From a virus (taxonomy: Duplodnaviria > Caudoviricetes), in the IMG/VR virus record IMGVR_UViG_3300018494_000083: a DNA stretch of 64,000 nucleotides; one strand, 5' to 3'. Below are positions 4,493 through 46,389 of this stretch, piece by piece (within the stretch, counting starts at the first letter, position 1; every line of letters begins with the position of its first letter). The notes under the pieces were generated by a model. The model ran no database searches and had not been told where the DNA came from. It worked only from the letters and a program-made list of their open reading frames with translations. The position numbers and the translations under genes are program-made.

Positions 4493-6061
4493 ATGTATTT
4501 ACGAATGCTACAAATAGATGATTTCGTGAAGCTGAATAATCTTCGTGAGATCAAGGATCCTATTTACATGCAATTTAAACAACCAACTCCAGAAGGGTTG
4601 TTCAGTCATGAGATTTTTGGTATAACCCAGTATGATAGATCTACTATTTGGGGCTATATCGACCTCGGTGCTAGATTCTTGCATCCTCTTGCGGCGAATA
4701 ACTTTAAGAAATATGGATCGACCTTTGAAAATATCATCTATGGTCTTAAACGCTATAGAATGGTCGATGGTGAGTTTATCGAAGATGAAGAAAATGGTGA
4801 CACCGGAATTGATTTTCTTTACGAAAATTACGATAATATAAAATGGAGAGATACACCGAGTATTGGATCAAGCGAAAGGATTAAATTCCTTAAGCAAGGT
4901 AAAGATAGAATCTTTATCACCAAATTCCCAGTATGCCCTCCGTTCTATCGTGATATCAATGACAACTCTTCCACAGGTATCCCTGTTGTAAATGAGTTGT
5001 ATAAAAAGGTTATCTCTCAATGTATGGCACTTAAGAAGAAAGGATCGTTCTCTTTCTTTGGAAACCTTACAAGAGCTAACATCCAAAAAACACTTGTTGA
5101 AATCTTTGACCATTATGTCACTTCCCTTAAAGGTAAGACTGGTTTAATGCGTAGATCTGTAATGGGTCGTAATATTGACTACGGTGTATGGTGCGTTCTT
5201 GCATCTCCTGTAATTGACTGTGAAAGATATGATGAAATGCTGGTTGACTTTGACCACATGGGAATCCCTCTTGCAGCAGTCCTCGCAATGTTTAAACCCT
5301 TTATCTTACAGGCAACCAAAGATTTCTTTGCAAACGAATTTGTGAGATCGGGTAAATACCCCGTCTTGAAGATGACCGGTAAAGGAAAGTACGAAACTGT
5401 ACTGGTAGACTTTATCGATCCTCTGAGTGAATTCTCTGATGATTTTATCGACAAAAGAATTGCAAACTTTGTCAATGGCTATTCTACCAGATTTGAGCCA
5501 ATTGAGATTCCTAGTAACCGTGAAGGTATTAAGGGATACTTGTCTATATCTGGTCGTTTTGGTAGTGATGAAAAGATCTCTACTCGTCCTATGACTTGGA
5601 CTGATCTGTTCTTCATCGTTGCCGAAGAATGTACACAAGACAAGAGTGCAATCTGGAGTCGTTATCCTATAGATCATTTCTATTCTGTTGAATATCCTAA
5701 GGTTAGAGTAATGTCAACCATTACTACTACAACCGCAACTATCGATAATAAAACCTACAAGTGGTATCCGAATGTCAAAGTTGGTCAAGATTCCTCTTCT
5801 GACTTTGTGGCAACGATTGCACCATGTAACGTTAATATCGGAGCTTTAGGCGCGGACTACGATGGAGATAGTACTCCGCTCAGAGGAATATTCACAGCAG
5901 AAGGAAATATCGAAGCTGAGAAGTTCAGAAGAGATAAAAAGAATTTCTTGGATCTCCAAGGAAGAAATATCAGACCTACAGAGAAAGACTTCTGTCAGTT
6001 AATGTATTCTTTGACTAAGCCTAGCATTGTTATGCCTGGTGAACTTGAAGATCCTAACTAA
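4493..6061 (+). CDS. Phage multi-subunit RNA polymerase beta'-like subunit (N-terminal plus catalytic part), probably virion RNAP
   Basis: PTPEGLFSHEIFG, WGYIDL, KGKTGLMRRSVMGRNIDY, SRYP and catalytic GADYDGD (NADFDGD homolog). Confidence 0.92.
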   Translation: MYLRMLQIDDFVKLNNLREIKDPIYMQFKQPTPEGLFSHEIFGITQYDRSTIWGYIDLGARFLHPLAANNFKKYGSTFENIIYGLKRYRMVDGEFIEDEENGDTGIDFLYENYDNIKWRDTPSIGSSERIKFLKQGKDRIFITKFPVCPPFYRDINDNSSTGIPVVNELYKKVISQCMALKKKGSFSFFGNLTRANIQKTLVEIFDHYVTSLKGKTGLMRRSVMGRNIDYGVWCVLASPVIDCERYDEMLVDFDHMGIPLAAVLAMFKPFILQATKDFFANEFVRSGKYPVLKMTGKGKYETVLVDFIDPLSEFSDDFIDKRIANFVNGYSTRFEPIEIPSNREGIKGYLSISGRFGSDEKISTRPMTWTDLFFIVAEECTQDKSAIWSRYPIDHFYSVEYPKVRVMSTITTTTATIDNKTYKWYPNVKVGQDSSSDFVATIAPCNVNIGALGADYDGDSTPLRGIFTAEGNIEAEKFRRDKKNFLDLQGRNIRPTEKDFCQLMYSLTKPSIVMPGELEDPN

Positions 6062-6068
6062 CGACGAA

Positions 6069-6100
6069 AAAGAGGTAGTAGGAAAACCTACTACCTCTTT
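6069..6100 (+). terminator. Hairpin terminator after beta' gene
   Basis: AAAGAGGTAGTAGG-AAAA-CCTACTACCTCTTT, perfect 14-bp stem. Confidence 0.8.
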
Positions 6101-6288
6101 GATGAAGAAAAAGAACAACCGAGAAATAATATAACAGCTATTGTGATAACTCTGACATTTTATGTTTGTAAATGCTACACGCATTAGTGTTTCAGTTCAA
6201 GCAATAACCACCATATTACTTATGGTTATTTTAATGTTGTTCCTAAATTAAACAAGATTCTTCAACTCATAAAAATATATACATACCG

Positions 6289-6300
6289 AACAATATAATG
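6289..6300 (+). promoter_or_regulatory. Late-type promoter AACA-N6-TG
   Basis: AACAATATAATG; followed about 65 nt later by a terminator hairpin. Confidence 0.55.
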
Positions 6301-6400
6301 TGATGCTTCTCATGCTGTCACATGCTGTTTGTTTTCGGCATTTTTGGACTCCTTATTTTGTAAAAGGGCATATCCTCCGCAGGGATATGCCCGCTTTTTT
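6300..6400 (+). ncRNA. Candidate ~100-nt small RNA with anti-SD tract
   Basis: Promoter motif at 6289-6300, terminator at 6366-6400, internal CATTTTTGGACTCCTTATTTT (antisense to AAGGAG-N8-ATG). Confidence 0.4.
6366..6400 (+). terminator. Rho-independent terminator immediately upstream of cassette array 1
   Basis: GGGCATATCC-N7-GGATATGCCC-GCTTTTTT. Confidence 0.8.
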
Positions 6401-6410
6401 CGTCCTCTGC

Positions 6411-8996
6411 ACTCCAATATCATACGGATTATGGATTCAAGATAAAGGAAGTTTCGTACTTGGAACACCTGTTAGTGGAACTGCGACATATGCATATAGT
6501 TCTAATCTAGATGGTGCTACTCCAGGAATGTATAATGAGGCAGAATGGAGACAGTATTACAGATTAAATATAGACGGAATTGGAGGAGCTGGCGGTTATA
6601 CATACGGGGTTGACGGATTAGGGTATGGTTTTACTCCAGGTACACATGACGGGGTTGACGGATTATATAATGAGATGATTCGACTCGGTTATAGCGGCGA
6701 TATAAATTTTGCAGGAGCTCAAGATAGCATACGAGGTGTATAGACTCCAGCAAGAAATCATCATTCAGTACCAGTTGATTTGAAATCTATGATAAATGTA
6801 TCGATATTTGGAGATGCAAGAAGTAATTATATTGAGGCTAGCTATAATCATGGTGCTACTCCATCAATATTCATAAATTCTGATAGTCATACAAGATATA
6901 CAATTTATAACAGAGATGGACTTGGAAGAGATTATGCATATGTTATCGATAACTATGGTACTACTCCATCTGATACAAACCCAAATTATGATGGGACATT
7001 GGAAGATTTTCATTGGATAGCCAATTATGGAGGACCTTATACAGGTTGGTTACCTACTTGGATAATAGGTGTCACTCCTTTAATGCATGCCGATTCAATA
7101 CATTTAGATCAAAGATCCTTTGCCATTACATATCAAGATGGTTGTTTTCAGGTTGATCAAATCGAAAGTTATTATACCCATGGTTATTACTCCAGATAAA
7201 TTGCTTCATGTAGGCGAATTAGCAGGATGCCATTATTATTGGTTTGGTACTGGCGGATATGGAGGTTATGGCGGAACAGTTTGGGACAAAAGAGGTGTCT
7301 CAACTCCAGTCATGAATTATCACTCAATAAAAATAGATCAATACTCAATTGCCAATATATTACCTAATGGAAATGCACATGCATCTCTAATAGAAACATA
7401 TTATAATCATGGTGTCACTCCACCAGCATTTGGTTGGATGTACCAAGGGAGTCCATCTGGATACGGTCATATTGCAATCATATTTAGTTGGGGAGAATCA
7501 TCTGCTAGCAACCAAAGTACAGCTAATCCAAATGGTGCTACTCCAGGTCATGCTCTCAGGTACAATGGTATGTATCCTGCAGAAGGATCTCTTAGCCTTT
7601 CTGATGGCAGGGGAGCTGATTCTGGAACTATTTATCAGGCGTATAATGGTACTCCTTCTGTTAACGACCCAACGATGTTAATATATGGCGGATATAAATA
7701 TTCCTATTACTTTTATGATATGAGAGAATATGGAGGTATATCTGCTGATTCATCTGTTGGAGATCGAGGTGTTTATGACTCCATTTTGGAATACAAATTA
7801 TGATATAGCTTATCCAACATGGGTTTATAAAATAGAAAGTACTGGTTGGTGTATAAGTTATAGAAATACTACCCTGGATAAACTTGGTGATATACTCCGT
7901 CAGTAGCCGATAAATATAATGGATCTATATTGATACAGGAGAGTGTTCGGATTAATGGAGATTGTTCATGGAATGTATCAAGGGAAAAGTATGGACTCCT
8001 GGGTTGCTGGGAGACGTATATCATTGGTGCGATCAGTTTGAATACACCCAACCAGATGGGATTGTATATAGTAGTGGATTTGGATGTCATTCTAATCATG
8101 GTTACATTACTCCAGTTAGTGTGAATAAAATATATTCTAGCGACATTAATAACACTTGTGTAATTTTAAGAAATGGTGAAAGCGGGACATATGGCTATTT
8201 CTATTCAGGTGCCAATAATGGTGCTACTCCTAGTAATATGACAGATAGCAATGCTCAATTGTGGGATAATGGAATATCTGCAATCGGAACTTGGATTAAT
8301 ACTTTGTGGAATAAAATTGGTGTACAACTCCACATTTAATAGTACGAAATTTTATCCAGGAAATGTACTGTACGAGTTTAATCATAGCTGACGGATACGG
8401 TGTAACAGATCAGTGGTTCATGTCAAATTATAAGCTTGGTGAATACCACTCCAAGATCAGAATCACTAATATATGAAGGAACTGAATTATCAACGGATCA
8501 TTTGTATGCCATACATGATATCGGTCAATGCTCTCCCAGATTTTATATTAATATGTATGGTTCTACTCCAGATGTAAGATATTGGGTTGGTTTAAATGTA
8601 TGGCATGAAGGTATCTTTTGTCATATTCATACTGAATATAATGAATATGTAAATTACGCAAATTGTAAGTATGAGTTACTCCAAGTAGACGAGTTCCACC
8701 AGATGGAGAACAGAGAGGAACTAGAGTTCAAACCGATGGGACGTGTTCCGAACTTATATATACTATTCTTCGGTATGGACAACTCCAAGTAGATCTAAAG
8801 TAGCCATCAATGATGATCGATGGTGCAGATATTGGGAAAATGGGACAGTCACCTTTCAAGCATATCCAACAATCAGGTATGGTCTACTCCAAGTAATTCA
8901 AAAGCTGCAGATAGTCTGAGATGGTGTAGATTTATGAATAACGGAACAATTACAGTCTTAGCTTATCCATCAATATCGTATGAAATACTTACTTGA
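6411..8996 (+). repeat. Cassette array 1: 23 ACTCC-anchored peptide-coding units (101-127 bp spacing)
   Basis: ACTCC at 6411, 6519, 6633, 6744, 6858, 6963, 7074, 7189, 7303, 7417, 7540, 7651, 7778, 7894, 7995, 8109, 8226, 8327, 8448, 8565, 8678, 8782, 8886; each unit reads open from Thr-Pro; most end at Gly-x; no RBS or start codon. Confidence 0.9.
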
Positions 8997-9014
8997 AACA
9001 AAATAAGACATAAA

Positions 9015-9032
9015 TATACATCATATTTGTGA
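9015..9032 (+). promoter_or_regulatory. Class-2 (probably early) phage promoter motif
   Basis: TATACA-TCATATTTG-TGA; same TAT(A/G)(C/T)A-N9-TGA pattern at six intergenic sites. Confidence 0.55.
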
Positions 9033-9137
9033 TATGAGCAGGAGTAATTACAAGACTTATTATATTAATATAGGGAGTTAATATAATAACAGATCATTAG
9101 TAATCACTGTGGGTATATAAAAAGATATACTCTGATT

Positions 9138-9149
9138 AACACATCAATA
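9138..9149 (+). promoter_or_regulatory. Late-type promoter AACA-N6-TA
   Basis: AACACATCAATA upstream of 9218. Confidence 0.5.
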
Positions 9150-9217
9150 ATGTACCGTGAAATGCGGCGCATGTTAATTATCATATCAAAAAAATAATTC
9201 AAAGAGAGGTACACAAA

Positions 9218-9976
9218 ATGACCACAACAAATCCGAAACTCACACTTAGCACTGAAGTCCTTGGTGTGGCAGAAGGAAAACCGGAGGATCTGTCAGGTTA
9301 TATCCTTAATCCTAAGGAAGTATCTTCTGCTGTTGCGAGGGTATTTGAACTTTTGGGTGTTGACAAGGATGATATCAGATGCGTAAAGCTCGCTTCTGAT
9401 GCTGACAACAAGCCTAAGATTATCGTCGAGGTTTCCTACAAAGCTGTTAAGAAGAACGACGATAACCAGCCTACCGCTTCCTGGACCGAGTTCTATGAAG
9501 GCGGCAATCCCGAAGGTGGAAAGAATCGTCTCTCCAACTTCATTTACAAGTCCCTTATGGGCTGTGCGTATTATGGACAGGATCACAACGCTCTCAAGTG
9601 GCGTAAGGTTGTCCGTGGAGATGCTAAGTACGCTCAGATCGAGTTCGATCCTTACATCTTCATTGCATTCGCATACAACATCAACTTCGCTGATCCCTTC
9701 TTCAAGATCTCTGCTCCTGCTACTCGCTGGACTTCCAACGATAAGCTCGACGAGATGTCCGGTAAGGAGAGAAAGGCAATTCTTCGCAAGGAAGCAGAAT
9801 ACAAAGAGGAGAATCTTCGTCCCTGTGTCTTCTACGTAACTTTCGCAAAGAATTCTACTTGGAGAGCTAAAGACGGCTCTCAGGTAAACGGCTTCCATCC
9901 TGAGCAGGTTGAGTACGTTTACGGCGAGATGACTCGCGAGAGAAAGAAGGAGAAGAAAAAGAAGAAGAACCACTAA
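9218..9976 (+). CDS. Hypothetical protein, high-expression codon bias, basic C-terminal tail
   Basis: 252-aa ORF, GAGAGG SD, own terminator, ends RERKKEKKKKKNH. Confidence 0.8.
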   Translation: MTTTNPKLTLSTEVLGVAEGKPEDLSGYILNPKEVSSAVARVFELLGVDKDDIRCVKLASDADNKPKIIVEVSYKAVKKNDDNQPTASWTEFYEGGNPEGGKNRLSNFIYKSLMGCAYYGQDHNALKWRKVVRGDAKYAQIEFDPYIFIAFAYNINFADPFFKISAPATRWTSNDKLDEMSGKERKAILRKEAEYKEENLRPCVFYVTFAKNSTWRAKDGSQVNGFHPEQVEYVYGEMTRERKKEKKKKKNH

Positions 9977-24356: not shown

Positions 24357-24392
24357 ATGGCAGACGGATTAATTTCCGTCTGCCATTTTTTT
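24357..24392 (+). terminator. Rho-independent terminator immediately upstream of cassette array 2
   Basis: ATGGCAGACGGA-TTAATT-TCCGTCTGCCAT-TTTTTT. Confidence 0.88.
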
Positions 24393-24403
24393 GTTTATTT
24401 TTT

Positions 24404-25866
24404 ACTCCATGTATAGGAACTGATCGTCCATTGCCAATATATAATCATCTTGTCAGAAATGTAGGTGCATCATTTAGTACTGGAGCAGATTATGTTTATT
24501 CTGCGTATGACTCCAACAAATGTAAATGATAATAGAGAAATGTACGGAACAAGTTTAATGCTCTTTTCAGGTGAGGGATTTATTAAAATGCATTCAACTG
24601 TGCGAGCATCCCTTGGTGACTACTCCACATAAAGTGCTACATTATGATAGAGAGAATTATGGCAATTCATTAGTTCTATATGATGGACGATCATACGCCG
24701 ATTCATATTATTCTGTAACTTATCAGATTGGTGGATATACTCCATTAAAAGATATAGGATATAATAATTACGAAAAACTCAACGGAATAAACCCAAGTGG
24801 ACAACCAGAGATGAAATACATGTGGATTCCAAATACCGAAAATGACGTCGGTGAGTAACTCCAACCCTTTGGTCTATTTATGATTATAATTATGATATAT
24901 TATACAGAATGGCAGATTATGGAGATTTAATTCTTGGTTCTGCTAGTCAATTATTTGGTGCCCATACTCCAGATACATGCTTTGAAATATTATCAATTGA
25001 ATCAACCAAATGGAAAGTAATTCATAATACTGGTGTAACTGTTGGCGGTCACGGAATTAGAGTCACTGACATTCCGGCTGGTGCAGGTGTTTGACTCCAG
25101 CAATGAATGAATTAAAAGCAGTGATTAATTATTCTGCATTTTTCTGGTTTTGGGATAGTATGTTATATTATGGATATATGCCAAATCATAACATTCCTGT
25201 TTGCACTCCTCTATCAAATCGATCTATATCAGATCTTGAGGGAGATCAGATACGATTTGCTGCATTATACAAAGATGCTGATGTATATTGACATTCCGTA
25301 AATTCTTGGATTTATGGTACTCCATATTCTCCTGGAGAATCTGCAACTTATTATATTGATAACAGCGGAAATAGTTCACCAAGAACAGGCAATATATTAG
25401 AAACTAGAGGTGTGACTCCGCAAGGAAAGATAGATCCATCAGCAAAAGCAGTAAATATCAATATTGCATATAATGGTCTTCCATCTTTACAGAACCCATC
25501 AGTGTCAGTTTGTGAATTACTCCAGTTAGAGAAAATGAATATGGACCACTTTATCACTTTGTCCTTGAAGCTACAGGTATTTCTAGAGGTGCGGGATGGT
25601 GTAGTACTCTTACTCTGACTGGTGTTAATTATTCACTCCTGAGGGTAGATCTTTATCTCACATAATATCGAATAAGGGAGAAGATAATCCTAGGTATACA
25701 AATATAGATACCAAATGGGGTGTTTGTTATTACTCCACAAGCGAAAATTCAAAGTGGAATAAAAACGGTATATCTCTTTATATCTGATTTTGGATTTTAT
25801 AGTATAGGTAATCCGAGCACACAAAAGTATGTTTTTCAGCATTTATATACAGGAGTCAGATCATAA
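24404..25866 (+). repeat. Cassette array 2: 13 ACTCC-anchored peptide-coding units (96-128 bp spacing)
   Basis: ACTCC at 24404, 24510, 24622, 24739, 24858, 24966, 25094, 25205, 25319, 25415, 25519, 25635, 25732; 12 of 13 lack an internal stop in the Thr-Pro frame; last unit ends GVRS-stop. Confidence 0.9.
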
Positions 25867-32922: not shown

Positions 32923-35900
32923 TTAAGCAGTTACTGCCTTGTTATATGCAGAAGTTTTACTTACAGAGTTCTCTTTCGAGGACCAGCTCGTAGCACCAAC
33001 AGCGGGACCATGGTTAGTACCAGTAGGAGTATTTCTAGCTGCATTCTCTTCCATACGGATAAGAGTATCAGAGATGGTATGAAGTGTATCAAGCATCTCA
33101 TTTGCAACCTGTGCAATCTTTCCTACAGTGTCGTCACCTTCGCCACGACCGTTGCCTGCATTAGTAATCTTCTGGATATTTGCTTTCGCAGACTGAACTG
33201 CCTTGCTAACCTTGTTTGCATTCTTCTTGTTAAGAGCCTGCTTAGCTGTCTCAGTAGGAATGGTGATTCCAGTAGTCTGAGGAATGATGCTAGCATTCGT
33301 GCCCTTGAACTTGTCGTATCCAAACTTACGGTTATTCTTCTTGTTGAGAGGATCATAAATATTGATTCCCTCTTCATCGGCATGAGTACCGAGTATATAG
33401 TGAGGATTCTTACCGAAGGGAGAGGTACCTCTACCATCAGAACCAACCATAGCTACAGGAATATTCTGAGTCATTGCATTGATAGCATCCTCAGTGATAC
33501 CGAACTGCTGTTGCATTCCGATTCCAAATTGATCTGCAAGTGCATCAAATACCTTAGTATCAGTGCCTTCAGATTTGTAACCGTTTGCATATGCAAAGTT
33601 CGAAACATCACCAGGCGTCAAATCGCTTCCTGTAAGTCCGTTCATCATCATAGCGGCAGTGGTAGGACCACAACCTCCATCACCAACAGTATCTTTCTTA
33701 CCATGATAGTAACCATACTGCTGATTTCTCCAACGAGGATCCTTTTGATTATAATAAGGAATGAACGACTCGGGTGTTTCTTCGCCTTCACCACGACCTC
33801 CGAAGAGACCCTTGATGGCTCCCCAAGCCTTCTTAGCACCATTAGCAACTGCCGATGCAGCCTTCTTTACACCTTCTTTGGCTTTAGAAGCTACATTAGC
33901 AACCGCTTTACCAACGGCACTATTTTTAACTTTATCAACCGCATTGCTGACAGCTTTGCCAACTGCAGAGTTCTTGACTTTGTCAACAACGCCACTAACG
34001 GCATCTTTAACCTTGCTTACAGCACCCTTAACCTTGTCTACGACACCGGCAGCGAAATCTTTCGCCTTACCAAGAAGATTAGCACCAAAGTCTTTCAACT
34101 TACCAGCAAGATCTCCGATTGTGTCTTTAATCTTACTACCGAAATCCTTCAGTTTATCACCTATCTTACTACCGAAGTCTTTGATCTTATCGAGTGCCTT
34201 AGCACCAAAGTCTTTTGCTTTATCAACAACACCAGCTCCCCAGTCTTTGAGTTTTCCGCCGATTTCACCGATCTTGGCACCAACGCCTTTGCCCCATTCA
34301 CCAATCTTGGAGCCTACACCCTTGGTCCAGTCCCAAACCTTGCCGCCGACATCCTTAAACCAGTTGCCGACTTTACCCATCATTCTTGAGAAACCAGATT
34401 GTTTCTTTGCATTGGGATCTCCATCTCCGATATAGTCTTCAAGTTCGTTAGTGCCTGTGAAGAATCCTTTGATTTTGCCCCAAGTAGTTCTATTCTGAAT
34501 TTGGTTATATTTCTCCATCGTCAAGCCCTTTTCAGCAGCTTCGGGGTGAGCCTTGATGAATGCATCATACTCAGCCTTGTGCTGTTCCTGGGACTTCTGG
34601 AGTTCTTCTTTCTCCTCATCAGATCCGATGATACCAAAGATGATACCAGTCAACCAGTCAACAGGAATAAGTCCAAGAAGCAATCCGGAGATAGCCTTAG
34701 ACAAACCTGCAACGATCTTAAGTTTCAGAGGAGGTTCATATCCAGGTGCAGTCTGCATGATGTTCTTAACGTCAGCCCAACCAGTACCGAAGTCGGTAAC
34801 CAACTGAGCAATAACAAGAGCCCAACCAGCTACGTTAGACCATTTTGCAATGAACGTAGCAGTCTTGGCAGCAAGTTGACCTGCACCCTTTTTAACAACG
34901 CTTGCAGCGATATTGTCAGCAGAACTAGCGATAATCTTACCGCCCTTCTTACCAACAAAGTTACTTATTTTACTTATAATACCCTTAATACCTTTAGAGA
35001 TCCAACCAGTAAGTTTACTTACAGCCGGAGTCTTAGCAACTTTCTGAACTCCCTTGGTGGCTGCTTTCGCAACCTTGCTTACCACACTTGTAGTTTTAGC
35101 ACCAGTACCAAGAGCAGATCCGACACCCTTAGCTACCGAAGATGTCAGTCTCAAAGCACCAGAGGCAGTCTGAACCGATCCACGGACGATCTTACCAGAA
35201 CCAGTTTCCTGGTCGAGGTTGTCGCCCTGCATAAGTTCTTTACCCTCCTTGATGTTATTGATACCAACACCGATCGACGCCATTGAGTGTATATCACCGG
35301 CATTGTTCTTGAGGAAGTTCCAAGCTTTCTGTTTAAGGGTTTGCTTACCATTGACAGCATTTGCAAGTTTACCAAGACCAAGCTTAGTCAACAGACCAGA
35401 GAGCATCGGAGCGATACTGCTAAGTCCGCTCAAAAGATTGCTCAAGAATCCGCCACCTTCACCCTTAGCTGCTGCTTGAATAACTGCACCCATACCATTA
35501 CCAATGCTATTTGCATTAGCCATGATACTCGTCGACTGTTCCAAGGATGCCAATTCACCGGAAGTATCAGCAGAATTAAGAATATTGCTTACATTCTTCT
35601 GTGTCTTCTTAGGATCGTCCGAATCCTGAGTCAACTGTCTTGTGTGCTTTTGCGTCTTCTTTGCAGCTTGGCGTTCAGCCTTAGCTTTCTTGCGTTCCTC
35701 TTTATCCTTCTTACCGAAGCCAAAGAGTTTACCGAATAGACCCGAAGCTTTCTTACTTACTCCTTCAATCTCAACCTTGATAGGTCTATGATTAGGAATT
35801 ACAGTATCTCCACCACGGGCAATAATAGCCTCGGGACCACGCTCACCAACGATATTGAATCCAAGTCCGGTTTTACCACCGAATGCATGACCTTCAACGG

Positions 35901-38900
35901 GAGCTTCACCCTTAGCCTGTTTAGTCAATTTATTTTTGAGCTTTCCGAAGAATCCACCGACCTTTTTACCAGCTCCGGTGAATCTATCCTTCAGTTTTCC
36001 AAAGAAGCCCTTCTTACCTTCGGTTTCGTTTTCCACGCTTTCTCCGGTTTCTTGAGCCTCTTTTTCTTCAGCTTTAGTTATTTTCTTCTTAGCAATAATG
36101 GCACCAACAATAGCGCCAGGAATAGGACCGAGACCAAGCAAGGTGGACGCTAATGCACCCTTGATAGCACCTTTAGCCTTCTTAAAGAAGTTTTTGATGC
36201 CACCACCCTTCTTACCTCCAGTCTGTTCATCCATTGCTTCTCCTGCTTCTTTGGCTTCCTTCTCTTCTTTCTTTTTCTGCTTACGCTTCTTAAGAATGGT
36301 ACCTACCAAGATACCAGGGAGAGGACCAAGTCCAAGGAGAGTAGAAACTGCACCGCCTATAGCGGCACCTTTGAACTTAGCAAGGAAGTTCGACCATTTG
36401 GCTTTCTTCTGGGCTTCCTCGAGAGGTTGACCAGCTTCCTCAGCCGCCTTAACGTCGTCTTTTTCTTTTCTAAGTTTCTTACCTATAATAGAGCCTACGA
36501 TAATACCAGGAAGCGGACCAAGACCTAAGAGAGAAGATGCAACGGCACCAACTACGGCACCCTTACCTCCACCTTTCTTACCATCCTTCATCTCTTTCTT
36601 CCTAGCCTTCCAGGCTTCTTTATCAAACTCTTTACCTTCTGCTTCAGCCTGTGCTTTCATTCTCGCTTTCTCGGCTTTCATCTTACGACGATCACCAACA
36701 ATAGCACCGACAATAAGTCCAGGCATAGGACCAAGTCCAAGCAACGAGGATGCAACAGCACCAGCAGTTGCTCCACCAGATTTAGAGTTCGTTACTTTAT
36801 TCTTAAGCGAATCCCAGAGACCACCTATGCCACCCTTCGCTTCAACTTTCTCCTTGGCTTTCTTACCAAATCCGAAAAGTTTAGAGAGTTTGCCTTGCTT
36901 AGGTTTAGCTCCACCTTCGCCCCCGCCACCGGACTGACCAGCGGCAATATTAGAACCAGCGATATAACCAGCAGTCTGACCAATCGTCTCTTGTGCATTA
37001 GAACCGAAGCTTGTTACATTAACATTGATAGCTCTGCTATTAGGGATAACAGTTCCACCACCATTAGATGCAATCAACTCAGGACCACGTTCACCGACGA
37101 TGTTAAGACCCTTACCAAGTTTACCACCCTTAGCGTGAGCTTCAACGGGTGCTTCACCTGACAGCTGTTTTCTAATCATTCCAACGGCTTTCTTGCCAAG
37201 TTCAACACCATCTTTTACGAGGTCGTCACTTGCGTTATTCTGAGCCGTACGGATTATCTGTTCATATGCCTTCGGGTTCATAAGTCTTTCTTCGTCAGCC
37301 ATACCGTCAACCAACTTAACCAATACAGGTACAGTTCCTTGACCAGCTACGATCTGGACTTTATGGACAATTTCCTCAGCATATGCTTTGGTTTGCTCAA
37401 CTTTGTCTTGAACAGTCTCAGTTGCTTTCTTCTTGACACCAGTTACTTTGTAGCGTTTTGCACCAGGTTTAGATTCACCTCCGCCAGCAGGCTTAGGTTC
37501 CTCATAAAATTCAGCTGCACTACCAGTAGCTTCCTCGTAGGCTTGTTTACCATACTTCTTGGCTTCTTCAGAAAGCTTGTCGACATGTTTCTTGAGGTTC
37601 TTTTCATAGAAAGACTTGAACTTAGTTCCAAGAGGATCGAGAACGTGTTTCTTCAATCCACCCTTAATAGGTTCAATGATATCTTTCTTCATAACTGTCA
37701 TAAACTCGGCTAACATACCAGGTTCGCCAGTCTTCTTGTCACCCCAAATTTTCTTATATAGTTTCGAGTCACCGAACTTACCCTGAATAACTGTCTTGAT
37801 ATTGCTGATCTGTTCAGTAATAACGGATTTGGCTTTAGAGAAGAGCTCTCCAAACATACCCTTATTCTTCTTCGGATCATCACCGTACATAATATCGGAG
37901 ATAGTATTAGCGGTTGCATCAAGTACACCAGGGAAGAATCCAGTTTCTCCAAAGAGTCCATTGAGGACCTTGTTTTGTTTTATATCAAAGACCTTCTTGA
38001 ACTTGTTAACAAAGTTATCCTTTGCACCTCCAAGAAGTTCGTCAGTTGCAGATTTTTCTCCAGACTTAGCAGGTTCAGTAGGTCTAGGACCGACGTCACT
38101 ACTATTGATTCTCTCGAGAAGTTCGTCAACTGTCATATTTCCTACTTCGGAGCTAGCAGAAGTATTTCCACGAGTTGCTCTTCTACGAGGAGTAGGTTTT
38201 TTAGAACCAGATCTTGGTTTAGAACCACCGCCTCTTGGAGCACCGCCACCTCCGGTATCAACTCCGTCATAGAAACCAGTATACAGGAGCATTTCACCAC
38301 TGTCTACTAATTCTTTATCTCGCATCTGTCGCATAGAACGAATTCTACCAATAGACTGCAATTGTTCTTTACGAACTCTTGCCTTGGCATCCTTCGAGAG
38401 AGACAGATACAGAGCTTTCATCATGTCAAAGCTCTTCTTACCACCTCTGAGTTCGAGACCTTTTCTCTTACAGAAATCATAAGTGAATTTAGACGGGTCT
38501 ACATTCTCACCGATTGTGGCAAGGAAGTACATAAACGCATCAAGATCTTCCTGATAGAGTTGCTTCTCGCCCTTGGACATTGTGCCTTCAAGTTTGAAAA
38601 GGTTGTCACTCATCATTCGCCTACTATCACTCATGCTATAAATAACATTCTTGCGATCCTCAGCATCAAGTTCTTGCTTACGCTTTTTACGATCTACAAA
38701 GACACCCTTATTGTAATCGAATATCTTATCTACACCAGAAAGTGCTCGTGTGATTTCTGACAAGTATTGAGGGATTACTTCAGTGATGGCTTTATTTTTC
38801 TTATTTTCAACCTCAAGAGTCAAAGCCTGATTCTTGTAGGATGCAGTCATAGGTTTGGTCATTGTCTTGGTTTCAATACCAAGCATTTCACCAATGGAAC

Positions 38901-39966
38901 GGAATAAACCATTCTTGGAATTCTTTGCCATGTTATTCATTCCCATAAGGAACGATGCAAAGAGACCCTCGACAGAGTCGTTAAGTTTACCCATGCTATT
39001 CTTCATAGACTTAGGTGTAGCAGCATTGAGTCCGAGACTCATGAGCATACCTAATGGGTTATTCTTAAACTGACCGCCGATGGTACCCATCATAGATCCT
39101 AAAAGACCAAGGGTTCCACCTGAGTTATTCTTGAAGTTCTGCTTGACTGCTCTTCCATAGGCTTTGAGATCGATACCATTTCCAGAGAAAATCTCTTCAA
39201 TGGGATTGATGTTTAAAGCACCCTTCTTAGTTCCGAACCTAGCAGCGTTAGTCTCATTCATCTGAGTAACTTGCTGATTGATAGACTCCAACAGACTTGT
39301 CGTCTTATCATAGTATTCCATACTAGAAGCAATGAAGCCCTTCATCTCATTCAGGTTAAAGTTAACTTGTGCCTGAGCAAGATTCTGAAGGTTTCCAAGT
39401 ACATTCATCTGTTCCATATGGAATCTAGATGTCTGAATCATCGACTGTGTATTACCAGACGAAATAACCTGACCAATATAATCAGTTGATCCAGTTATGA
39501 CTCTACCAGTGTCACGGAATCCAGCATTGATGGAAGAAGACGATGCATTTATATTTGCGGCAAGTTGAGAGGCATAAGCAGCCGGATCCTCAGCTCCACC
39601 GGAATCATCATCAAGATAAGAATTCATCAATCCACCGAGAGTAGTATCTCCGGAATCGAATCGTTCATCATTGTAAAGCCTTCCCGATTTAAGGTCGGCT
39701 TTCATATTTGCGAATGTGTCTCCCATATACGACTTGAATGCCGTACTTTGGGCTTTAAGTCCAATCTTGAGTCTGGATCTATCACGAAGAACATCTCTTC
39801 TGAAAGACTGGATTACAGTGCCCGTAGCTACACCCACACTGTGGATGGCAGGCATATGAGTTTCGACGTAATCGGAACCAATCTTTCTAAGTGAATAAGC
39901 CATATTCTTGCGATATTCGTTGCCAGCTTTCTTCTTAGACTTAAGTTTTTCTTTTTTGGAAGCCAT
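32923..39966 (-). CDS. Tape-measure-like protein with C-terminal C39-like cysteine peptidase domain
   Basis: 2347 aa, G/K/A-rich; 11-residue F/W-periodic repeats; two HAxGG..IVGERGPE motifs; YYNQKDPRW..GCGPTTAAM..HYI..IYDP peptidase motif; late promoter. Confidence 0.8.
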   Translation of the reverse strand: MASKKEKLKSKKKAGNEYRKNMAYSLRKIGSDYVETHMPAIHSVGVATGTVIQSFRRDVLRDRSRLKIGLKAQSTAFKSYMGDTFANMKADLKSGRLYNDERFDSGDTTLGGLMNSYLDDDSGGAEDPAAYASQLAANINASSSSINAGFRDTGRVITGSTDYIGQVISSGNTQSMIQTSRFHMEQMNVLGNLQNLAQAQVNFNLNEMKGFIASSMEYYDKTTSLLESINQQVTQMNETNAARFGTKKGALNINPIEEIFSGNGIDLKAYGRAVKQNFKNNSGGTLGLLGSMMGTIGGQFKNNPLGMLMSLGLNAATPKSMKNSMGKLNDSVEGLFASFLMGMNNMAKNSKNGLFRSIGEMLGIETKTMTKPMTASYKNQALTLEVENKKNKAITEVIPQYLSEITRALSGVDKIFDYNKGVFVDRKKRKQELDAEDRKNVIYSMSDSRRMMSDNLFKLEGTMSKGEKQLYQEDLDAFMYFLATIGENVDPSKFTYDFCKRKGLELRGGKKSFDMMKALYLSLSKDAKARVRKEQLQSIGRIRSMRQMRDKELVDSGEMLLYTGFYDGVDTGGGGAPRGGGSKPRSGSKKPTPRRRATRGNTSASSEVGNMTVDELLERINSSDVGPRPTEPAKSGEKSATDELLGGAKDNFVNKFKKVFDIKQNKVLNGLFGETGFFPGVLDATANTISDIMYGDDPKKNKGMFGELFSKAKSVITEQISNIKTVIQGKFGDSKLYKKIWGDKKTGEPGMLAEFMTVMKKDIIEPIKGGLKKHVLDPLGTKFKSFYEKNLKKHVDKLSEEAKKYGKQAYEEATGSAAEFYEEPKPAGGGESKPGAKRYKVTGVKKKATETVQDKVEQTKAYAEEIVHKVQIVAGQGTVPVLVKLVDGMADEERLMNPKAYEQIIRTAQNNASDDLVKDGVELGKKAVGMIRKQLSGEAPVEAHAKGGKLGKGLNIVGERGPELIASNGGGTVIPNSRAINVNVTSFGSNAQETIGQTAGYIAGSNIAAGQSGGGGEGGAKPKQGKLSKLFGFGKKAKEKVEAKGGIGGLWDSLKNKVTNSKSGGATAGAVASSLLGLGPMPGLIVGAIVGDRRKMKAEKARMKAQAEAEGKEFDKEAWKARKKEMKDGKKGGGKGAVVGAVASSLLGLGPLPGIIVGSIIGKKLRKEKDDVKAAEEAGQPLEEAQKKAKWSNFLAKFKGAAIGGAVSTLLGLGPLPGILVGTILKKRKQKKKEEKEAKEAGEAMDEQTGGKKGGGIKNFFKKAKGAIKGALASTLLGLGPIPGAIVGAIIAKKKITKAEEKEAQETGESVENETEGKKGFFGKLKDRFTGAGKKVGGFFGKLKNKLTKQAKGEAPVEGHAFGGKTGLGFNIVGERGPEAIIARGGDTVIPNHRPIKVEIEGVSKKASGLFGKLFGFGKKDKEERKKAKAERQAAKKTQKHTRQLTQDSDDPKKTQKNVSNILNSADTSGELASLEQSTSIMANANSIGNGMGAVIQAAAKGEGGGFLSNLLSGLSSIAPMLSGLLTKLGLGKLANAVNGKQTLKQKAWNFLKNNAGDIHSMASIGVGINNIKEGKELMQGDNLDQETGSGKIVRGSVQTASGALRLTSSVAKGVGSALGTGAKTTSVVSKVAKAATKGVQKVAKTPAVSKLTGWISKGIKGIISKISNFVGKKGGKIIASSADNIAASVVKKGAGQLAAKTATFIAKWSNVAGWALVIAQLVTDFGTGWADVKNIMQTAPGYEPPLKLKIVAGLSKAISGLLLGLIPVDWLTGIIFGIIGSDEEKEELQKSQEQHKAEYDAFIKAHPEAAEKGLTMEKYNQIQNRTTWGKIKGFFTGTNELEDYIGDGDPNAKKQSGFSRMMGKVGNWFKDVGGKVWDWTKGVGSKIGEWGKGVGAKIGEIGGKLKDWGAGVVDKAKDFGAKALDKIKDFGSKIGDKLKDFGSKIKDTIGDLAGKLKDFGANLLGKAKDFAAGVVDKVKGAVSKVKDAVSGVVDKVKNSAVGKAVSNAVDKVKNSAVGKAVANVASKAKEGVKKAASAVANGAKKAWGAIKGLFGGRGEGEETPESFIPYYNQKDPRWRNQQYGYYHGKKDTVGDGGCGPTTAAMMMNGLTGSDLTPGDVSNFAYANGYKSEGTDTKVFDALADQFGIGMQQQFGITEDAINAMTQNIPVAMVGSDGRGTSPFGKNPHYILGTHADEEGINIYDPLNKKNNRKFGYDKFKGTNASIIPQTTGITIPTETAKQALNKKNANKVSKAVQSAKANIQKITNAGNGRGEGDDTVGKIAQVANEMLDTLHTISDTLIRMEENAARNTPTGTNHGPAVGATSWSSKENSVSKTSAYNKAVTA
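36090..36780 (-). repeat. Four hydrophobic glycine-zipper repeats inside tape-measure-like gene
   Basis: GAVASSLLGLGPMPGLIVGAIV / GAVASSLLGLGPLPGIIVGSII / GGAVSTLLGLGPLPGILVGTIL / GALASTLLGLGPIPGAIVGAII, separated by K/E-rich linkers. Confidence 0.85.
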
Positions 39967-40085: not shown

Positions 40086-43000
40086 TTAAGTATCTTTATC
40101 TTCGAGGATGTCTTTAATCTTCTTTTCTGCACCAATCATGACTGTATTAAGAGCCAAGGAAATAGATGCAGACTGAGTCATACGTGCCATCAAACCAGAG
40201 ATCGAAAGGAACGCATCAATCTTGATACTCGGGTCAGAAACCAGATACGGCTCCAAACCAAGAGGAATTGTAGATTGGTTAATACCCTTCAGAGCGGTTG
40301 AGAAGGACAGCTTATCACCAACAGAGAACGAGTCAACGGTCTGTACAAAGAACTTGATCAGAACTTGGAACTCATCCATCTTAGTGCCAGCAATCTTACC
40401 ATTTACAGGCACAGTAACATCGGCAGTATCATTCAAGGTAGTCATATCCTTAAGATTGATACCTGCTTCTTCGAAGTTCTTAAGTCTTTCCTTGATCTTT
40501 CTCTCATAGTTAGTAATAACTTTTCTGAGCGAAGGACTGAGCTCGGACTTAGGACATGTGTAATAGATCTTGATATCGACAACCTTACCGTTCCACTTGG
40601 ACTTAACATGATTCTTGGAAGCTTCGATAAGTTTATCTTTCTCTTCCTGATTCATCTTAGAAAGCATCTGGTTAAGGTAGTCATCTTCGTAGGATTCATC
40701 AAATACAATGAACGGATCATTTACATTGACAGAATCACCTACAGATTTGATTGCATAGATATTGGAATTCTTACCAAGACGAACTTCTTTAACTTCATCT
40801 ACATAAGAAGCCATTCTCTGTGCAAACTTTTCAGTTACAAGGGTAGAGTCCTCGTAAACGAACGAACCGTGAATAAGTGCAACTCTAGCCAAAGGACCAG
40901 ACTTGTAGATAACTTCACCAGCAAGTTCATCATACTCGAAGAACTGACTGTTTGCTGCAAGCACATCGCCTTCAGAGAACTTCTGACCAACTGTCTTGTA
41001 AATAGGATCGAGTCTATTGTTGATATAGAAACCTGATCCGGTATTCAGAGACTGTCTATCGGTCAAGTCAATTACTTCGGATTTACCAGACTCATAACGA
41101 ACGATCATATATCCAAGGTCAGGGTTGAACTCATGTACATAACCGTTCTCTTTTGCTTTGAATGCAAATTTATCGGAAATGATCTTAGGAAGAACCTTAT
41201 CTGCACCATACCCAAATAACGGAACATCAGAGTCCATAACGGCGAGAGTATGTCTAGACTGAGTCGATGCCATGCCAACACGCTGAGGGTCATCATGAGT
41301 TGCTGTCATAGGAATAAGCATTTCTGCACCGGACAGAAGGTTCGTCTGATCGAGTTTTTCTTGGTCTTCTCCATAGCCTACATCGAGGTAACCTCTAAGC
41401 GAAGTTACATTCGGGTTGAGAGCCATGATACGAGAAATACCTACGTTTGCAGATACAGGAGACGACTGTGCAAGAATGCCCAACATAGAGTCATTATATG
41501 CACGCTTGTCGATCTTAAATCCTTTATCAACGTTACATCCACCAGGACCCTTATAAGAAGTTGCTCTCATACGATCGATTTCAAAAATCGGGTTAAGATT
41601 AGAATACTCTTCCATAACCTGAGAATCGAACATATTGTTTATCAACTCGTTAGTCTTGATAGAGAACTTGTTGGGATTCTTATTATCTGCTGTAGATCTG
41701 TAGGATTCATATGCTTTCGAAAGCACCTTATATAGGTGAGCATTGAGCATCTCATTACTTCTGATACGATAGTTCTTGAGGTCACCATCTTTATCAAAGG
41801 TATTATTTTCAAGCAGAGTATTAGCATAGATTACAAGATCAATAAAGTCAGTAGGAAGGTTATAATCTTCCAATACTTCTTTAGTAATCGAATCTATAAA
41901 CAACTGCTGGAAGTTCTCAAACGCAGTGCCGATATTTCTACGACCAAACATCTTCATGAAAATATCGTAATAGATATCTTTAGAACAGAAGTCGAGGAAG
42001 TTGTAATCCTCAGTAGGAATATCATAGAAACCGTTCAAAAGCAGAGAGTTGCTATACGGATAGAGATCATAGCTAAGGAAACCATCAGCAAACTGAATAG
42101 TTCCACGCTTAGTAGAATCTTCCTTAGTTCTAGTCTCGGAGAATTTATGGTTACATTTAAGCTTAACGAGCAAAGGCTCAAGACCGATCAAGAAAGACAG
42201 AAGAAGTACAACAGGTACATCTTTTGCCATGATCTTAGCTCTCGTATAAATCGACTTCTTAGTACCGGAGATAGATTTGAACTGACTTCTGATCTTTTCG
42301 TCATCCGAATGTTTAATAATAAAGTCGATAGGTGTCATGTTGGAATCTTCTCCATCATAGATAACCTCTCCACTCTTAACATCGAGACAAACAAGAGACT
42401 TCTTACCAGTCTTATCAGTTTCAATAGCAAAAGGAAGTTCATCTTTCTTATCATAAGTAAGATCTTCACTTTCGCAAATAGAGCGAATGTCATCTTGACG
42501 AAGGTAGATGACTGTATCAGCATTCTTCAAGGTAATAGTTGTGAACTTCTTACTAAGCTCATCATATTCCATCGAAGTCATATAGGGAACGTTATCCATT
42601 AGGTTGTTACCCTTCTCGAATTCAATAGAAGAATTCTCAAGAGAACCAAGAAGTTTCATGAATTTCGAAACCTTATTGGACACATTCTTACCGAAACGAG
42701 TCATAAAGATTTTATTGTACAAAGAGGAGATCTGAACCTGGTCAGGCGCAACCTTTGTAACAGGAAGAGGAATAATCTGGTTGATAAAGATCTTGTCGGA
42801 TCCATTGAGGAACATGAACTTATCATTCATGAACTTAGGTACATCGAATGAGAAGCTATGTCTTCTACCATACTCATCCTCATAAACACAGGAATACCTG
42901 AAGATCTTGTCGATTGCAGTAGAGATATCTTCCTTATTGATAGAAATCAGATAAAGAGGTCTATCTTTCTCAGCAAAGGAAGTAAGGATATTCATCATAT

Positions 43001-44502: not shown

Positions 44503-45209
44503 ACTCCGAAGCCATTTATTCATATCTGGCAAGGAGAAGATGTATCACTGATTCATATGTCAGTCGTGTATGATAATGGAAATGGATCTGTAAGATATAT
44601 CGCAGGATTTGATGGTGTTCAACTCCAAGTTATATATACGACAAATATGCAGATAGTCGCTGGTCAAAAATATTATCAGGTGGAGATAATACATTTGAGT
44701 CTGGGTCAGCGGATAGAATTTATGGTCTACTCCAAGATTTTATTATAATGAAAATCTAGTAGATGATAGAATGATATTAGTTAATGGAACTGTGGATATG
44801 ACTATATATCCTTATAAAATGTATGAGTTACTCCAGGTCCATGGATGCTACCTTGGGGTCTTGATCAGATTTATGGGATTAATCAGTATTCAAATCTCGG
44901 TGTTTCTTTTCCGACTAATCCAAATAATAAAGATGGTACTCCTGCTGGATATAAGATGCCAAACAATACCGATAGTCTATACACTCAGAGAATTATGCAA
45001 ATGAGTGATAAAGGATCAGGGACAACACAATACATTCCAAAAAATAAGTATGGTATATTACTCCATCAAACAATAAACGATATAAGTATGAAGAAAATAG
45101 ATATTTTACATTTAATGAAACTGGTGATGTTGAAACCTGGTATGATATTCCTAATGCCGAGTATGAATTGTATACATTTTTATACTTCAACAGACAATAT
45201 ATCAAATAG
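44503..45209 (+). repeat. Cassette array 3: 6 ACTCC-anchored peptide-coding units (101-122 bp spacing)
   Basis: ACTCC at 44503, 44622, 44729, 44830, 44938, 45060 (possible degenerate ACTTC at 45184); all open in the Thr-Pro frame. Confidence 0.88.
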
Positions 45210-45271
45210 AATCGCTGACCAACTCGTACTCAATCAGCACCTCCTATTTGCCTCTTTTTTCGTCATTTTTC

Positions 45272-45420
45272 AAATGGGGAAAAGGAAGGAGAGAAGGGGG
45301 AAAGGGGGTTGAGAGAAAGAAAAAGGGGAAACATACCCCATGGGAACCGAGGGAGACCGAGGAGAGAAATCCCCCTCCGGAGGGAAGAATAGAAAGAAAA
45401 AAAATAAAGAGAAGAGAGTA
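45272..45420 (+). other. Non-coding polypurine / G-run tract
   Basis: GGGG 45276, GGGGG 45296, GGGGG 45304, GGGG 45325 in a nearly pure A/G stretch. Confidence 0.7.
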
Positions 45421-45548: not shown

Positions 45549-45770
45549 ATGGCTTTTAAGGATGTGAATAGAGATGTCTATATCGACATTCTACTCAAAG
45601 ACCTTGCACGACAAACAAAGGCAAACACACTGCCTCCAAGTGCAGAAGTTATCATGCATTATATCAGAGAAGGCAATATGAATGATAACGAGAAACTCAA
45701 CAAACATGGAATGCTTGTGCGAGACGGAAGAGTCGTCATTCGCTCACGCAAATTAAATCCGATTAAGTAA
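45549..45770 (+). CDS. Small hypothetical protein
   Basis: 73 aa, AAGGAGG SD; C-terminal RDGRVVIRSRK motif. Confidence 0.75.
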   Translation: MAFKDVNRDVYIDILLKDLARQTKANTLPPSAEVIMHYIREGNMNDNEKLNKHGMLVRDGRVVIRSRKLNPIK

Positions 45771-45797
45771 TAAATTTCATTTAAAGGAGAAACACAA

Positions 45798-46328
45798 ATG
45801 GATACTATTAAGTCCCTGGTAGAGAGCAATGCCAACAACGCAAGAAAGACGAAGAACAATGATCTGTACTTCAAGATCGTTTGTGCAATTTGCTCCGACG
45901 ATTCTTACGTAGCTAAGAATGTAAAAAATATCACCGCTGATGGTGCTGTCATCACTGACGATCTCAAGCTCTCTGTAGCATTCAAGAGAATCCTCGCTCA
46001 GGTACTCAAGAAGAGCACCAGCATGACCGAGGCAGAGGCTTTCGAAGCAGCCAACGGTGTAGAACTCACAACTGATCAGGCTAAGACCCTCATGCACATC
46101 ATTCATGAAGCCGACTATATCATGATGAAGGACTGCAACAAGAAGGTTCAGATGTTCAATAAGCCTGGTTTCGATATCACTCTTTCTATCGGCACAGCAC
46201 CTGAGTCGATTCGTCCCAATCCTCAGAACAGAGCAGTATCTGTCAAGATTGAGGCTCATGACAGACTTCAGGTAAGCCAGAAGATCTTCGACTTCCAGAA
46301 GAAGACCGTAAAGACTCCCAAGAAGTGA
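45798..46328 (+). CDS. Possible HU/IHF-like DNA-binding protein
   Basis: KKVQMF..ESIRPNPQNRAVSVKIEAH resembles the HU arm (RNPQTGE..I.A); strong codon bias; basic tail. Confidence 0.45.
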   Translation: MDTIKSLVESNANNARKTKNNDLYFKIVCAICSDDSYVAKNVKNITADGAVITDDLKLSVAFKRILAQVLKKSTSMTEAEAFEAANGVELTTDQAKTLMHIIHEADYIMMKDCNKKVQMFNKPGFDITLSIGTAPESIRPNPQNRAVSVKIEAHDRLQVSQKIFDFQKKTVKTPKK

Positions 46329-46352
46329 TTTGAAACAAAAAAAATAAAATAT

Positions 46353-46389
46353 ATGGGAATAGCAACTTAATGCTATTCCCATTCTTTTT
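46353..46389. terminator. Bidirectional terminator
   Basis: ATGGGAATAGCA-ACTTAA-TGCTATTCCCAT flanked by A and T tracts. Confidence 0.8.

Follow-up and report, generated by a model that had tools for sequence, protein, structure and literature searches.

A 64,000-nucleotide stretch of viral DNA (Duplodnaviria; Caudoviricetes; IMG/VR virus record IMGVR_UViG_3300018494_000083), which we call the window, carries three one-directional arrays, designated A, B and C, of short coding units, and the junctions between these units raise an unusual question. Every unit opens with the five nucleotides ACTCC, but the stretch that separates the terminal Gly codon of one unit from the ACTCC of the next varies from junction to junction. 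Is one end of each unit defined by its sequence and the other processed imprecisely, as might be the case if fragments of DNA or cDNA had been captured one after another, or are both ends specified in the DNA itself? A first-pass annotation favored the former possibility and likened the arrays to an acquisition-type memory that stores coding segments. Our analysis indicates otherwise: the right end is not ragged, and what varies is a free spacer between a fixed 3′ motif, GGT(G), and the next fixed 5′ motif, ACTCC.

Both ends of each unit are defined in the DNA

The three arrays together hold 42 units at a spacing of 96-128 nt and account for 4753 nt of DNA (Table 1). All-against-all BLAST and alignment reveal the units, which are about 32-42 residues in size, to be paralogs of one repeat of about 37 residues with a shared plan, wherein Thr-Pro (TP) is followed by about eight residues, a strand, a central [DN]G turn, a second strand and a closing [YHN]G. 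Subfamilies reach 43-58% identity, in some instances across different arrays, and the closing units of arrays A and C are homologous; the mean column identity is 15%. The composition is high in Trp (4x), Tyr (2x) and Gly (1.7x), and low in Lys and Glu. At the DNA level, the sequence common to the units amounts to 5-14 nt at most, and Tandem Repeats Finder reports no array at this locus.

The left end is specified with great precision. ACTCC occurs 57 times on the plus strand of the window. The 42 copies within the arrays are all unit starts, with none elsewhere in the units, and the other 15 are distributed over the remaining 59247 nt. The pattern GGTNNNACTCC has 11 matches where 1.17 are expected, a number reached by 0 of 100 shuffles. 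Furthermore, the Thr codon that opens each unit is ACT in 42 of 42 cases, compared to 37% of the Thr codons inside units and 48% of those in genes (P about 5e-19), which bears out the earlier proposal that this end is sequence-specific. An extension of the motif by selection for CCA was considered and rejected, as the unit-start Pro codon is CCA in 32 of 42 units and the same codon makes up 66% of Pro codons inside units.

The right end is likewise marked. At 34 of the 39 internal junctions, the final 18 nt include a Gly codon that is in frame with the unit (the five junctions without one are those of units 8565, 24404, 25094, 25415 and 44729, each named by its first position). This codon is GGT in 31 of 34 instances, compared to 27% of Gly codons inside units (P about 4e-15), and the base after the terminal GGT is G in 20 of 30. 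By manual count, the preceding codon is mostly NAT (Asn, His, Tyr or Asp), such that the end reads xATGGT 19 times, TTGGTG six times and AGGTGT four times. The distance from this GG to the next ACTCC is 0-12 nt. The ten junctions quoted in the first-pass annotation read as it stated: GG (7995), GGT (7651, 25319, 44938), GGTCT (8886), GGTGCT or GGTGTC (6519, 6858, 7540, 8226, 7074, 7417), GGTGATAT (7894), GGTGTATAG (6744), GGTGAATACC (8448) and GGTGTTTGTTATT (25732). It is the conclusion drawn from them, an imprecisely processed end, that the fixed GGT(G) does not support.

The codon usage of the units has a character of its own. Units favor codons that end in A (Pro CCA, 66%; Gly GGA, 55%) and the phage genes favor codons that end in T (Pro CCT, Gly GGT). 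Within the units, the boundary codons ACT and GGT alone follow the gene-like choice.

The spacers disregard the reading frame. Unit length modulo 3 is 0, 1 or 2 at 19, 6 and 14 of the 39 junctions, respectively, and 20 of 39 are thus out of frame. The in-frame cases comprise 10 of the first 12 junctions in array A and 9 of the other 27. In contrast, the frame is kept within every unit, and all changes of frame are confined to the short stretch before ACTCC. In the ACTCC frame, stop codons number 4 among 1573 codons, compared to 79 of 1551 and 175 of 1545 in the other two frames; these off-frame rates (5% and 11%) equal those of the 33 genes of the window that served as the comparison set for codon use, start sites and off-frame stops, and so there is no excess. 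The four in-frame stops are a TAG at junction 6741, the natural ends of two arrays and an internal TGA in unit 25205.

Reshuffling and spacer changes among relatives

Relatives of the locus were available as called proteins (P numbers) and as contigs from two sequencing runs, X9 and X10, compared across positions 5500-9500 and built with 31-letter words. The sequencing runs that hold the 6300-9000 locus are animal faeces and gut metagenomes, and no RNA run is among the listed datasets that contain it. Whole units come and go among these relatives. In X10, unit 6411 is missing and the tail of the leader of array A is joined straight to the ACTCC at 6519 (side 112); P0008 also lacks this unit, P0003 lacks unit 7074, and unit 8448 is absent from both contig sets (X9 and X10; side 115). 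In X9, 97 nt replace units 7778 and 7894 (side 255), a change that begins in the spacer and ends 6 nt before the ACTCC at 7995. Order is altered as well: X10 has the succession 8226, 7995, 8327 (side 56), and in P0005 a 7417-type unit precedes a 7189-type unit. Among the called proteins, any of six different units may follow the 6744-type unit, and an extra ‘TPGINQY’ unit appears in six proteins. The breakpoints of unit deletion, replacement and re-ordering fall at the motifs.

Exchange also occurs within units. At least 25 of the 46 differences between X9 and the window in positions 7189-7773 lie within 7309-7400, a patch inside one unit that starts 6 nt after ACTCC and stops 11 nt before GGT, and is therefore bracketed by the two motifs. 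The neighboring units account for six and four of the differences listed, with 10 of the 46 lying outside that list. Manual codon reading of the patch gives 14 residue changes and six silent ones. In P0022, the body of unit 24510 is joined to the ‘GGY’ tail of unit 24622, which corresponds to a crossover at the TTGGTG end motif. Both the patch and this joint agree with the earlier suggestion that exchange proceeds by crossover at or before the Gly codon. Divergence of X9 is 6-9% of positions in the arrays and 0-3% in the flanks, and strain differences are spread along the whole array rather than just at its leader end. For array C, P0029 matches the window at 88% identity in the last unit and at 55% identity in the two units that precede it.

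Spacers themselves gain and lose nucleotides. Junction 7539/7540 carries an extra A in X10, which corresponds to a frameshift in P0007, P0008, P0009 and P0028 and to the ORF (open reading frame) start of P0018. Junction 7650/7651 is longer by 3 nt (one codon) in P0003, and junctions 25093/25094 and 45059/45060, each shifted by +2 in the window, are in frame in P0026 and P0029, respectively. Ordinary indel variation of the post-Gly bases among strains, which the first-pass annotation had itself named as evidence against capture, is thus seen in part, at these four junctions. Not every break is labile, in that units 25415 and 25519 are separated by the same +2 break in the diverged relative P0026. 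Inside units, indels occur solely as compensating pairs.

Start signals and competing explanations

Most genes of the window are readily recognized by their ribosome-binding sites: GGAG or GAGG lies 5-12 nt before the start of 24 of the 33 genes, and a Shine-Dalgarno 5-mer precedes 20 of 33. Within the arrays, there is one Shine-Dalgarno 5-mer only, before a TTG that is out of the unit frame, and no Shine-Dalgarno-led start was found for any ORF in arrays A to C. Upstream of array B, neither ATG nor GTG is present in frame and a single in-frame TTG at -57 (24347) lacks a Shine-Dalgarno sequence, and no in-frame start lies ahead of the first unit of array C. Strong hairpins with the features of transcription terminators precede arrays A and B (Table 1). 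For 13 of the 42 units, an in-frame stop lies 3-30 nt upstream and no start codon intervenes, and none of the 13 has an internal stop; across the roughly 470 codons of these untranslatable units there are 0 stops, where off-frame rates predict 24-52. The GC content at third codon positions is 0.22 for the units, compared to 0.29-0.57 for each of the 33 genes, and the choice of Pro, Gly and Thr codons is also sharply unlike that of the genes. The lack of start signals, together with the terminators and the relaxed codon usage, leads us to infer that most units are silent in place.

Start codons do arise at certain junctions. At all six +1 junctions, the end motif provides an in-frame ATG, GTG or TTG no more than 12 nt from the next ACTCC, and gene callers took such starts in relatives (MVITP, MVLTP, MTTP). 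These codons follow from the motif, and selection need not be involved.

The leader of array A could be a small RNA or a regulatory leader. Positions 6100-6400 differ at 4 of 300 nt in X10, compared to 12 of 112 nt in the next unit, and this segment folds well as RNA (z = -4.16). No Rfam family matches the leader (6100-6410) and no Shine-Dalgarno sequence precedes its ATG at 6303; other Rfam and tRNA searches also gave nothing.

One explanation for these characteristics is that the arrays constitute a mostly silent library of modules that are reassorted by recombination at ACTCC and GGT(G), and we regard this proposal as evenly poised between right and wrong. Each unit would be a self-contained coding module whose 5′ end, ACTCC(A), encodes Thr-Pro and whose 3′ end, GGT(G), encodes Gly, and the 0-12 nt between GGT and the next ACTCC would serve as an unconstrained spacer. 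Whole modules or their interiors could be deleted, replaced, duplicated or re-ordered by crossovers in or beside the two short motifs. A crossover at ACTCC or GGT would re-set the frame of the incoming module, and as a result the length of the spacer would be unselected and would drift by small indels. This freedom, in turn, would produce near-random relative frames outside the first half of array A while leaving the units intact.

The modules would stay intact by frequent cycling through translated configurations. Candidates for such configurations are the in-frame runs, restarts at an ATG, GTG or TTG supplied by xATGGT or TTGGTG with a +1 spacer, and an expression site elsewhere in the genome of about 250 kb. 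The integrity of the units and their conservation across diverged strains imply regular exposure to protein-level selection, presumably on a population time scale. The silent units would then act as a reservoir, and the Trp/Tyr/Gly-rich product may be a variable binding protein.

A bolder form of this proposal, which we advance as a doubtful though worthwhile possibility, is that the phage carries a programmed variation system of the silent-cassette type. At least 42 start-less modules (ACTCCA...GGTG) would be copied or fused, under the direction of the phage, into a translated position to yield a phage population with varied Trp/Tyr/Gly-rich binding modules. If true, this would be a third route to diversity in phage host range or counter-defence, beside diversity-generating retroelements and invertible tail-fibre segments. 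A working module library would also be the first variation system of the silent-cassette type reported in a phage, and no phage system of this kind is among the matches listed in full-text literature searches. It would furthermore offer a natural example of very short DNA motifs that keep coding modules exchangeable whatever the frame of their neighbors. Even on a plainer interpretation, the arrays are the fastest-changing loci of this phage, and therefore are a place to look for determinants of host recognition or counter-defence.

Several observations weigh against a module library. First, the shared motifs of 5-14 nt are short for homologous recombination. Second, no expression site was detected by the unit profile in the window or by protein searches, although a single-unit gene could be missed by these means. 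The window searches covered 64 kb, about one quarter of the genome. Third, scans of the window proteins (41 against PHROGs and 56 against Pfam) identified no recombinase beside any array, and the genes after arrays A and B are not homologous to each other. Fourth, some decay occurs: unit 25205 (25205-25318), the sole unit of the 42 with an internal stop, has already gained a nonsense codon, TGA, where its relative P0026 has a Trp codon (TGG). Fifth, relatives were compared as called proteins and as contigs aligned to the window at 80% likeness, and three further joints are weak, with sides of less than 30 nt (7222>7291, 7783>7877, 7898>8226). Finally, in-frame runs of six and nine units and the natural stops at array ends (P0003, P0026, P0029) fit plain genes that are translated in place.

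This last point leads to the strongest competitor, in which the units belong to ordinary fast-evolving repeat-protein genes translated where they lie, the frame breaks are recent damage or an on/off polymorphism, and the silent units have no role. We consider this account unlikely on balance, but the in-frame runs of as many as nine units in relatives (nine in P0003, six in P0026, and three plus a natural stop in P0029) give it real weight. The units are, after all, paralogs of one repeat, the first junctions of array A are mostly in frame (10 of 12), and start codons are supplied at +1 junctions. In addition, the P0025 protein is 93% identical (99 of 107 residues) and the corresponding X10 contig has 39 differences in 558 nt, a comparison that suggests purifying selection as a rough hint that assumes the protein and the contig come from one strain. 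However, no ORF in the arrays has a Shine-Dalgarno-led start, unlike most genes of the window, and arrays B and C have no usable start. Frames are random outside the first half of array A (9 of 27), yet the 13 untranslatable units are free of stops. Moreover, the +2 break between units 25415 and 25519 has been retained in the diverged P0026, and decay would not confine net indels to spacers.

The notion of a CRISPR-like acquisition memory, built from captured DNA or cDNA fragments with one site-specific and one imprecise end, fares far worse and is very improbable. It draws on the invariant left end and on the conserved leader before array A, where the window has a leader-proximal unit, 6411, that X10 and P0008 lack. 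However, the right end has its own GGT(G), and the same junctions differ by small indels between strains. The units are diverged paralogs of one repeat rather than arbitrary captured DNA, and across 1.84 billion representative proteins their homology extends only to one another. Their length varies over 96-128 nt, no inter-unit repeats extend beyond 5-14 nt, and differences between strains occur all along the array. No recipient gene with a flank to set against the post-Gly bases was found in the window or among database proteins, and the PHROG and Pfam scans of the 64-kb window found no reverse transcriptase, Cas1-like protein or integrase. The acquisition-type memory proposed in the first-pass annotation is accordingly not supported.

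An equally slim chance attaches to programmed recoding, by which frameshifting or ribosome hopping at each out-of-frame junction, signaled by GGT plus ACTCC, would yield continuous proteins. Frame changes are indeed limited to junctions, most of which are preceded by a Gly codon, and the take-off codon of the bypass in T4 gene 60 is a Gly codon. The junctions nevertheless hold no slippery heptamer and no matching landing codon, and the spacers vary in both sequence and length. Neither units nor junctions are structured when compared to shuffles (mean fold z = -0.37 and -0.35, respectively, with 2 of 42 junctions below -2). In-frame stops lie directly before ACTCC at 6741-6743 and within 6 nt before the start of several other units, and the array heads have no start codon or Shine-Dalgarno sequence.

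Least probable of all is an assembly artefact, in which the frame breaks and unit order would come from strain mixing in a metagenome assembly: the window does derive from a metagenome and the locus is broken into short contigs in X7, but six runs contain 99-100% of sampled words of 6300-9000 (runs that may be the window's own source and not independent), the motif shared between units is no longer than 14 nt and thus shorter than the 31-letter contig words, and the +A junction variant recurs in proteins from several separate contigs and in X10.

Known systems, related sequences and neighboring features

In their working, the arrays most resemble the vls silent cassettes and the module swapping of gp38 adhesins, and they are a member of neither by sequence or architecture. 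Borrelia is reported to carry contiguous arrays of silent vls cassettes beside one expression site, vlsE (PMC11499132). Like these, the phage arrays consist of head-to-tail open coding cassettes that lack starts and promoters, have short conserved end sequences and exhibit segmental replacement tracts. Two hallmarks of silent cassettes were found here, namely an open coding array without starts and a replacement tract bounded by cassette ends (X9, 7309-7400). The vls cassettes, however, are about 90% identical to each other, whereas the phage units are about 15% identical on average, share motifs of 5-14 nt, are distributed over three arrays and have no expression site that was found by our searches. 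In addition, the carrier is a lytic-type jumbo phage rather than a bacterium that faces antibodies.

T-even gp38 adhesins are reported to have hypervariable segments that are split by conserved glycine-rich motifs and swapped between phages (PMC3157838). As in that description, short motifs involving Gly bracket variable segments that are swapped as modules, with a likely role in variable binding. The gp38 gene is one continuous translated gene with four segments, unlike the 42 units in three start-less arrays with half of their junctions out of frame. The resemblance is one of working and not of membership, given that no Pfam or PHROG match connects the units with gp38.

The arrays also resemble the orphan C-terminal cassettes of polymorphic toxins and again are not a member by sequence or architecture. 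Rhs and CdiA toxins are described as gaining C-terminal diversity by recombination with standalone cassettes (PMC3482391). The phage units similarly are start-less coding units that begin at a short conserved motif. Orphan toxin cassettes are start-less, lie downstream of genes, use a short conserved motif for recombination onto the expressed gene and have a free 3′ end. They encode whole toxin domains with immunity genes and share tens of nucleotides with the main gene. In contrast, the phage units have 32-42 residues and are arranged in tandem, and no main gene was found for them.

Five other classes were considered and rejected. Like CRISPR arrays, the phage arrays include a conserved leader, one-directional order, units of similar size and strain-variable content. 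However, there are no identical direct repeats (ACTCC and mostly GGT(G) are all that is shared), the units are coding paralogs and not foreign DNA, their length is not fixed, no cas genes were found in the window and variation extends beyond the leader end. For a diversity-generating retroelement, no near-identical pair of units and no reverse transcriptase were found in the window, and strain differences are mostly transitions at all four bases. For an integron cassette array, units and junctions fold no better than shuffles and no integrase was found in the window. A shufflon or other set of invertible segments does not fit, with all 42 unit-start ACTCC on one strand and GGAGT present twice inside the arrays. 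Finally, an ordinary tandem-repeat protein gene does not match the 20 of 39 out-of-frame junctions and the lack of a Shine-Dalgarno-led start.

A nine-unit ORF has eight real matches in the 1.84 billion representative proteins, all of which are short array ORFs of related phages; a further match, P0013 (4040 residues), is a low-complexity repeat and was rejected as spurious. A profile search among longer proteins gave 14 matches, each of 334 residues or fewer, and within the window the unit profile has no match beyond the arrays (best E 0.29). Neither the units nor the genes that neighbor the arrays match a Pfam or PHROG family. No unit-like stretch was found in Listeria phage LPJP1, Bacillus phage Goe21 or Staphylococcus phage S6, an empty answer that weighs little.

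Fold prediction was uninformative, as AlphaFold2 gives P0003 a mean pLDDT of 29.6 alone and 34.0 with 21 rows, and these models are unusable. The solenoid-like neighbors of the Atlas model of P0003 (pLDDT 0.29) were discarded as meaningless. Against solved structures, P0003 has no match and the unit profile has one weak match, to a designed beta-trefoil (E 0.02, in three stretches of about 5 bits), which we treat as a lead only; feature matches of P0029 are weak.

The pattern of two copies of GGTGNNACTCCA separated by a gap of 85-115 identified 17 IMG/VR loci. Three of these with periodic ACTCC (L012, L017 and L019) were rejected as unit-like arrays and are ankyrin repeats, which match because they also run G-x-TPLH. 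They are in frame and have no relation to the phage units. Their spacing of GGTGNNACTCCA is 99-102 nt, and in contrast to the phage arrays, the units of L012 and L017 are 99-105 nt or multiples thereof and are in frame in the repeat runs. Three more loci (L006, L011 and L015) have short chains of three, and the other 11 have no chain.

Table 1. Positions of the arrays, junctions and other features (window coordinates, except for the ankyrin-repeat arrays, which are numbered within their own loci)
Feature	Position	Strand	Description
Array A	6411-8996	+	23 ACTCC-led units (Thr-Pro), open in the ACTCC frame; final unit closed by a natural stop
Array B	24404-25866	+	13 units; 5 of 12 junctions in frame
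Array C	44503-45209	+	6 units; 1 of 5 junctions in frame; between two minus-strand genes; natural stop at end
Junction stretch	7640-8460	+	Eight junctions, each a Gly codon plus spacer, then ACTCC
Junction	7648-7650	+	Gly codon plus spacer GGT
Junction	7768-7777	+	Gly codon plus spacer GGTGTTTATG; +1 shift at 7778
Junction	7886-7893	+	Gly codon plus spacer GGTGATAT; +2 shift at 7894
Junction	7993-7994	+	Gly codon plus spacer GG; +2 shift at 7995
Junction	8100-8108	+	Gly codon plus spacer GGTTACATT
Junction	8220-8225	+	Gly codon plus spacer GGTGCT
Junction	8319-8326	+	Gly codon plus spacer GGTGTACA; +2 shift at 8327
Junction	8438-8447	+	Gly codon plus spacer GGTGAATACC; +1 shift at 8448
Leader of array A	6100-6410	+	Conserved, non-coding; junction-like GG followed by ACTCC at 6346-6352
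Terminator-like hairpin before array A	6366-6392	+	T run after stem; first unit 19 nt past stem (terminator scan)
Terminator hairpin before array B	24357-24386	+	T-rich run to 24403; array B starts 18 nt past the hairpin
RNA polymerase gene	4493-6061	+	PHROG match (E 4.5e-74 and 5.8e-163 at the two RNA polymerase loci)
RNA polymerase gene	40086-44432	-	PHROG match (E-values as in the preceding row)
Ankyrin-repeat array L012	2458-5030		Matches GGTGNNACTCCA
Ankyrin-repeat array L017	2500-3870		Matches GGTGNNACTCCA; giant-virus bin label
Ankyrin-repeat array L019	2809-3420	-	Matches GGTGNNACTCCA; giant-virus bin label

Just past array C, positions 45230-45420 comprise a purine-rich tract that contains runs of G and A and several hairpins; its minus strand is terminator-like, and Rfam matches are at chance level. 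Further on, a 73-residue ORF with a perfect AGGAGG ribosome-binding site (45549-45770, plus strand) lies between array C and the minus-strand gene 45777-46382, and it has no family match. Elsewhere in the window, a minus-strand gene (32923-39966) encodes a 2347-residue protein that has tape-measure-like stretches and, close to the C-terminus, a Peptidase_C39-like domain (E 2e-9).

The window belongs to a jumbo phage and encodes split multisubunit RNA polymerase genes. The closest RNA polymerases in GenBank, at 31-35% protein identity, are those of Bacillus phages Goe21, AR9 and PBS1, Listeria phage LPJP1 and Staphylococcus jumbo phages. This AR9/PBS1-like polymerase, along with the strong Shine-Dalgarno sequences of most genes, points to a Firmicute host from animal gut. 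In the polymerase gene upstream of array A (4493-6061), X10 contains 358 additional letters between 5845 and 5858, and the X9 contigs break at 5845 and 5883. Positions 5845-5883 possibly mark an insertion polymorphism in the polymerase gene of relatives, such as a mobile intron or intein as in AR9-like phages.

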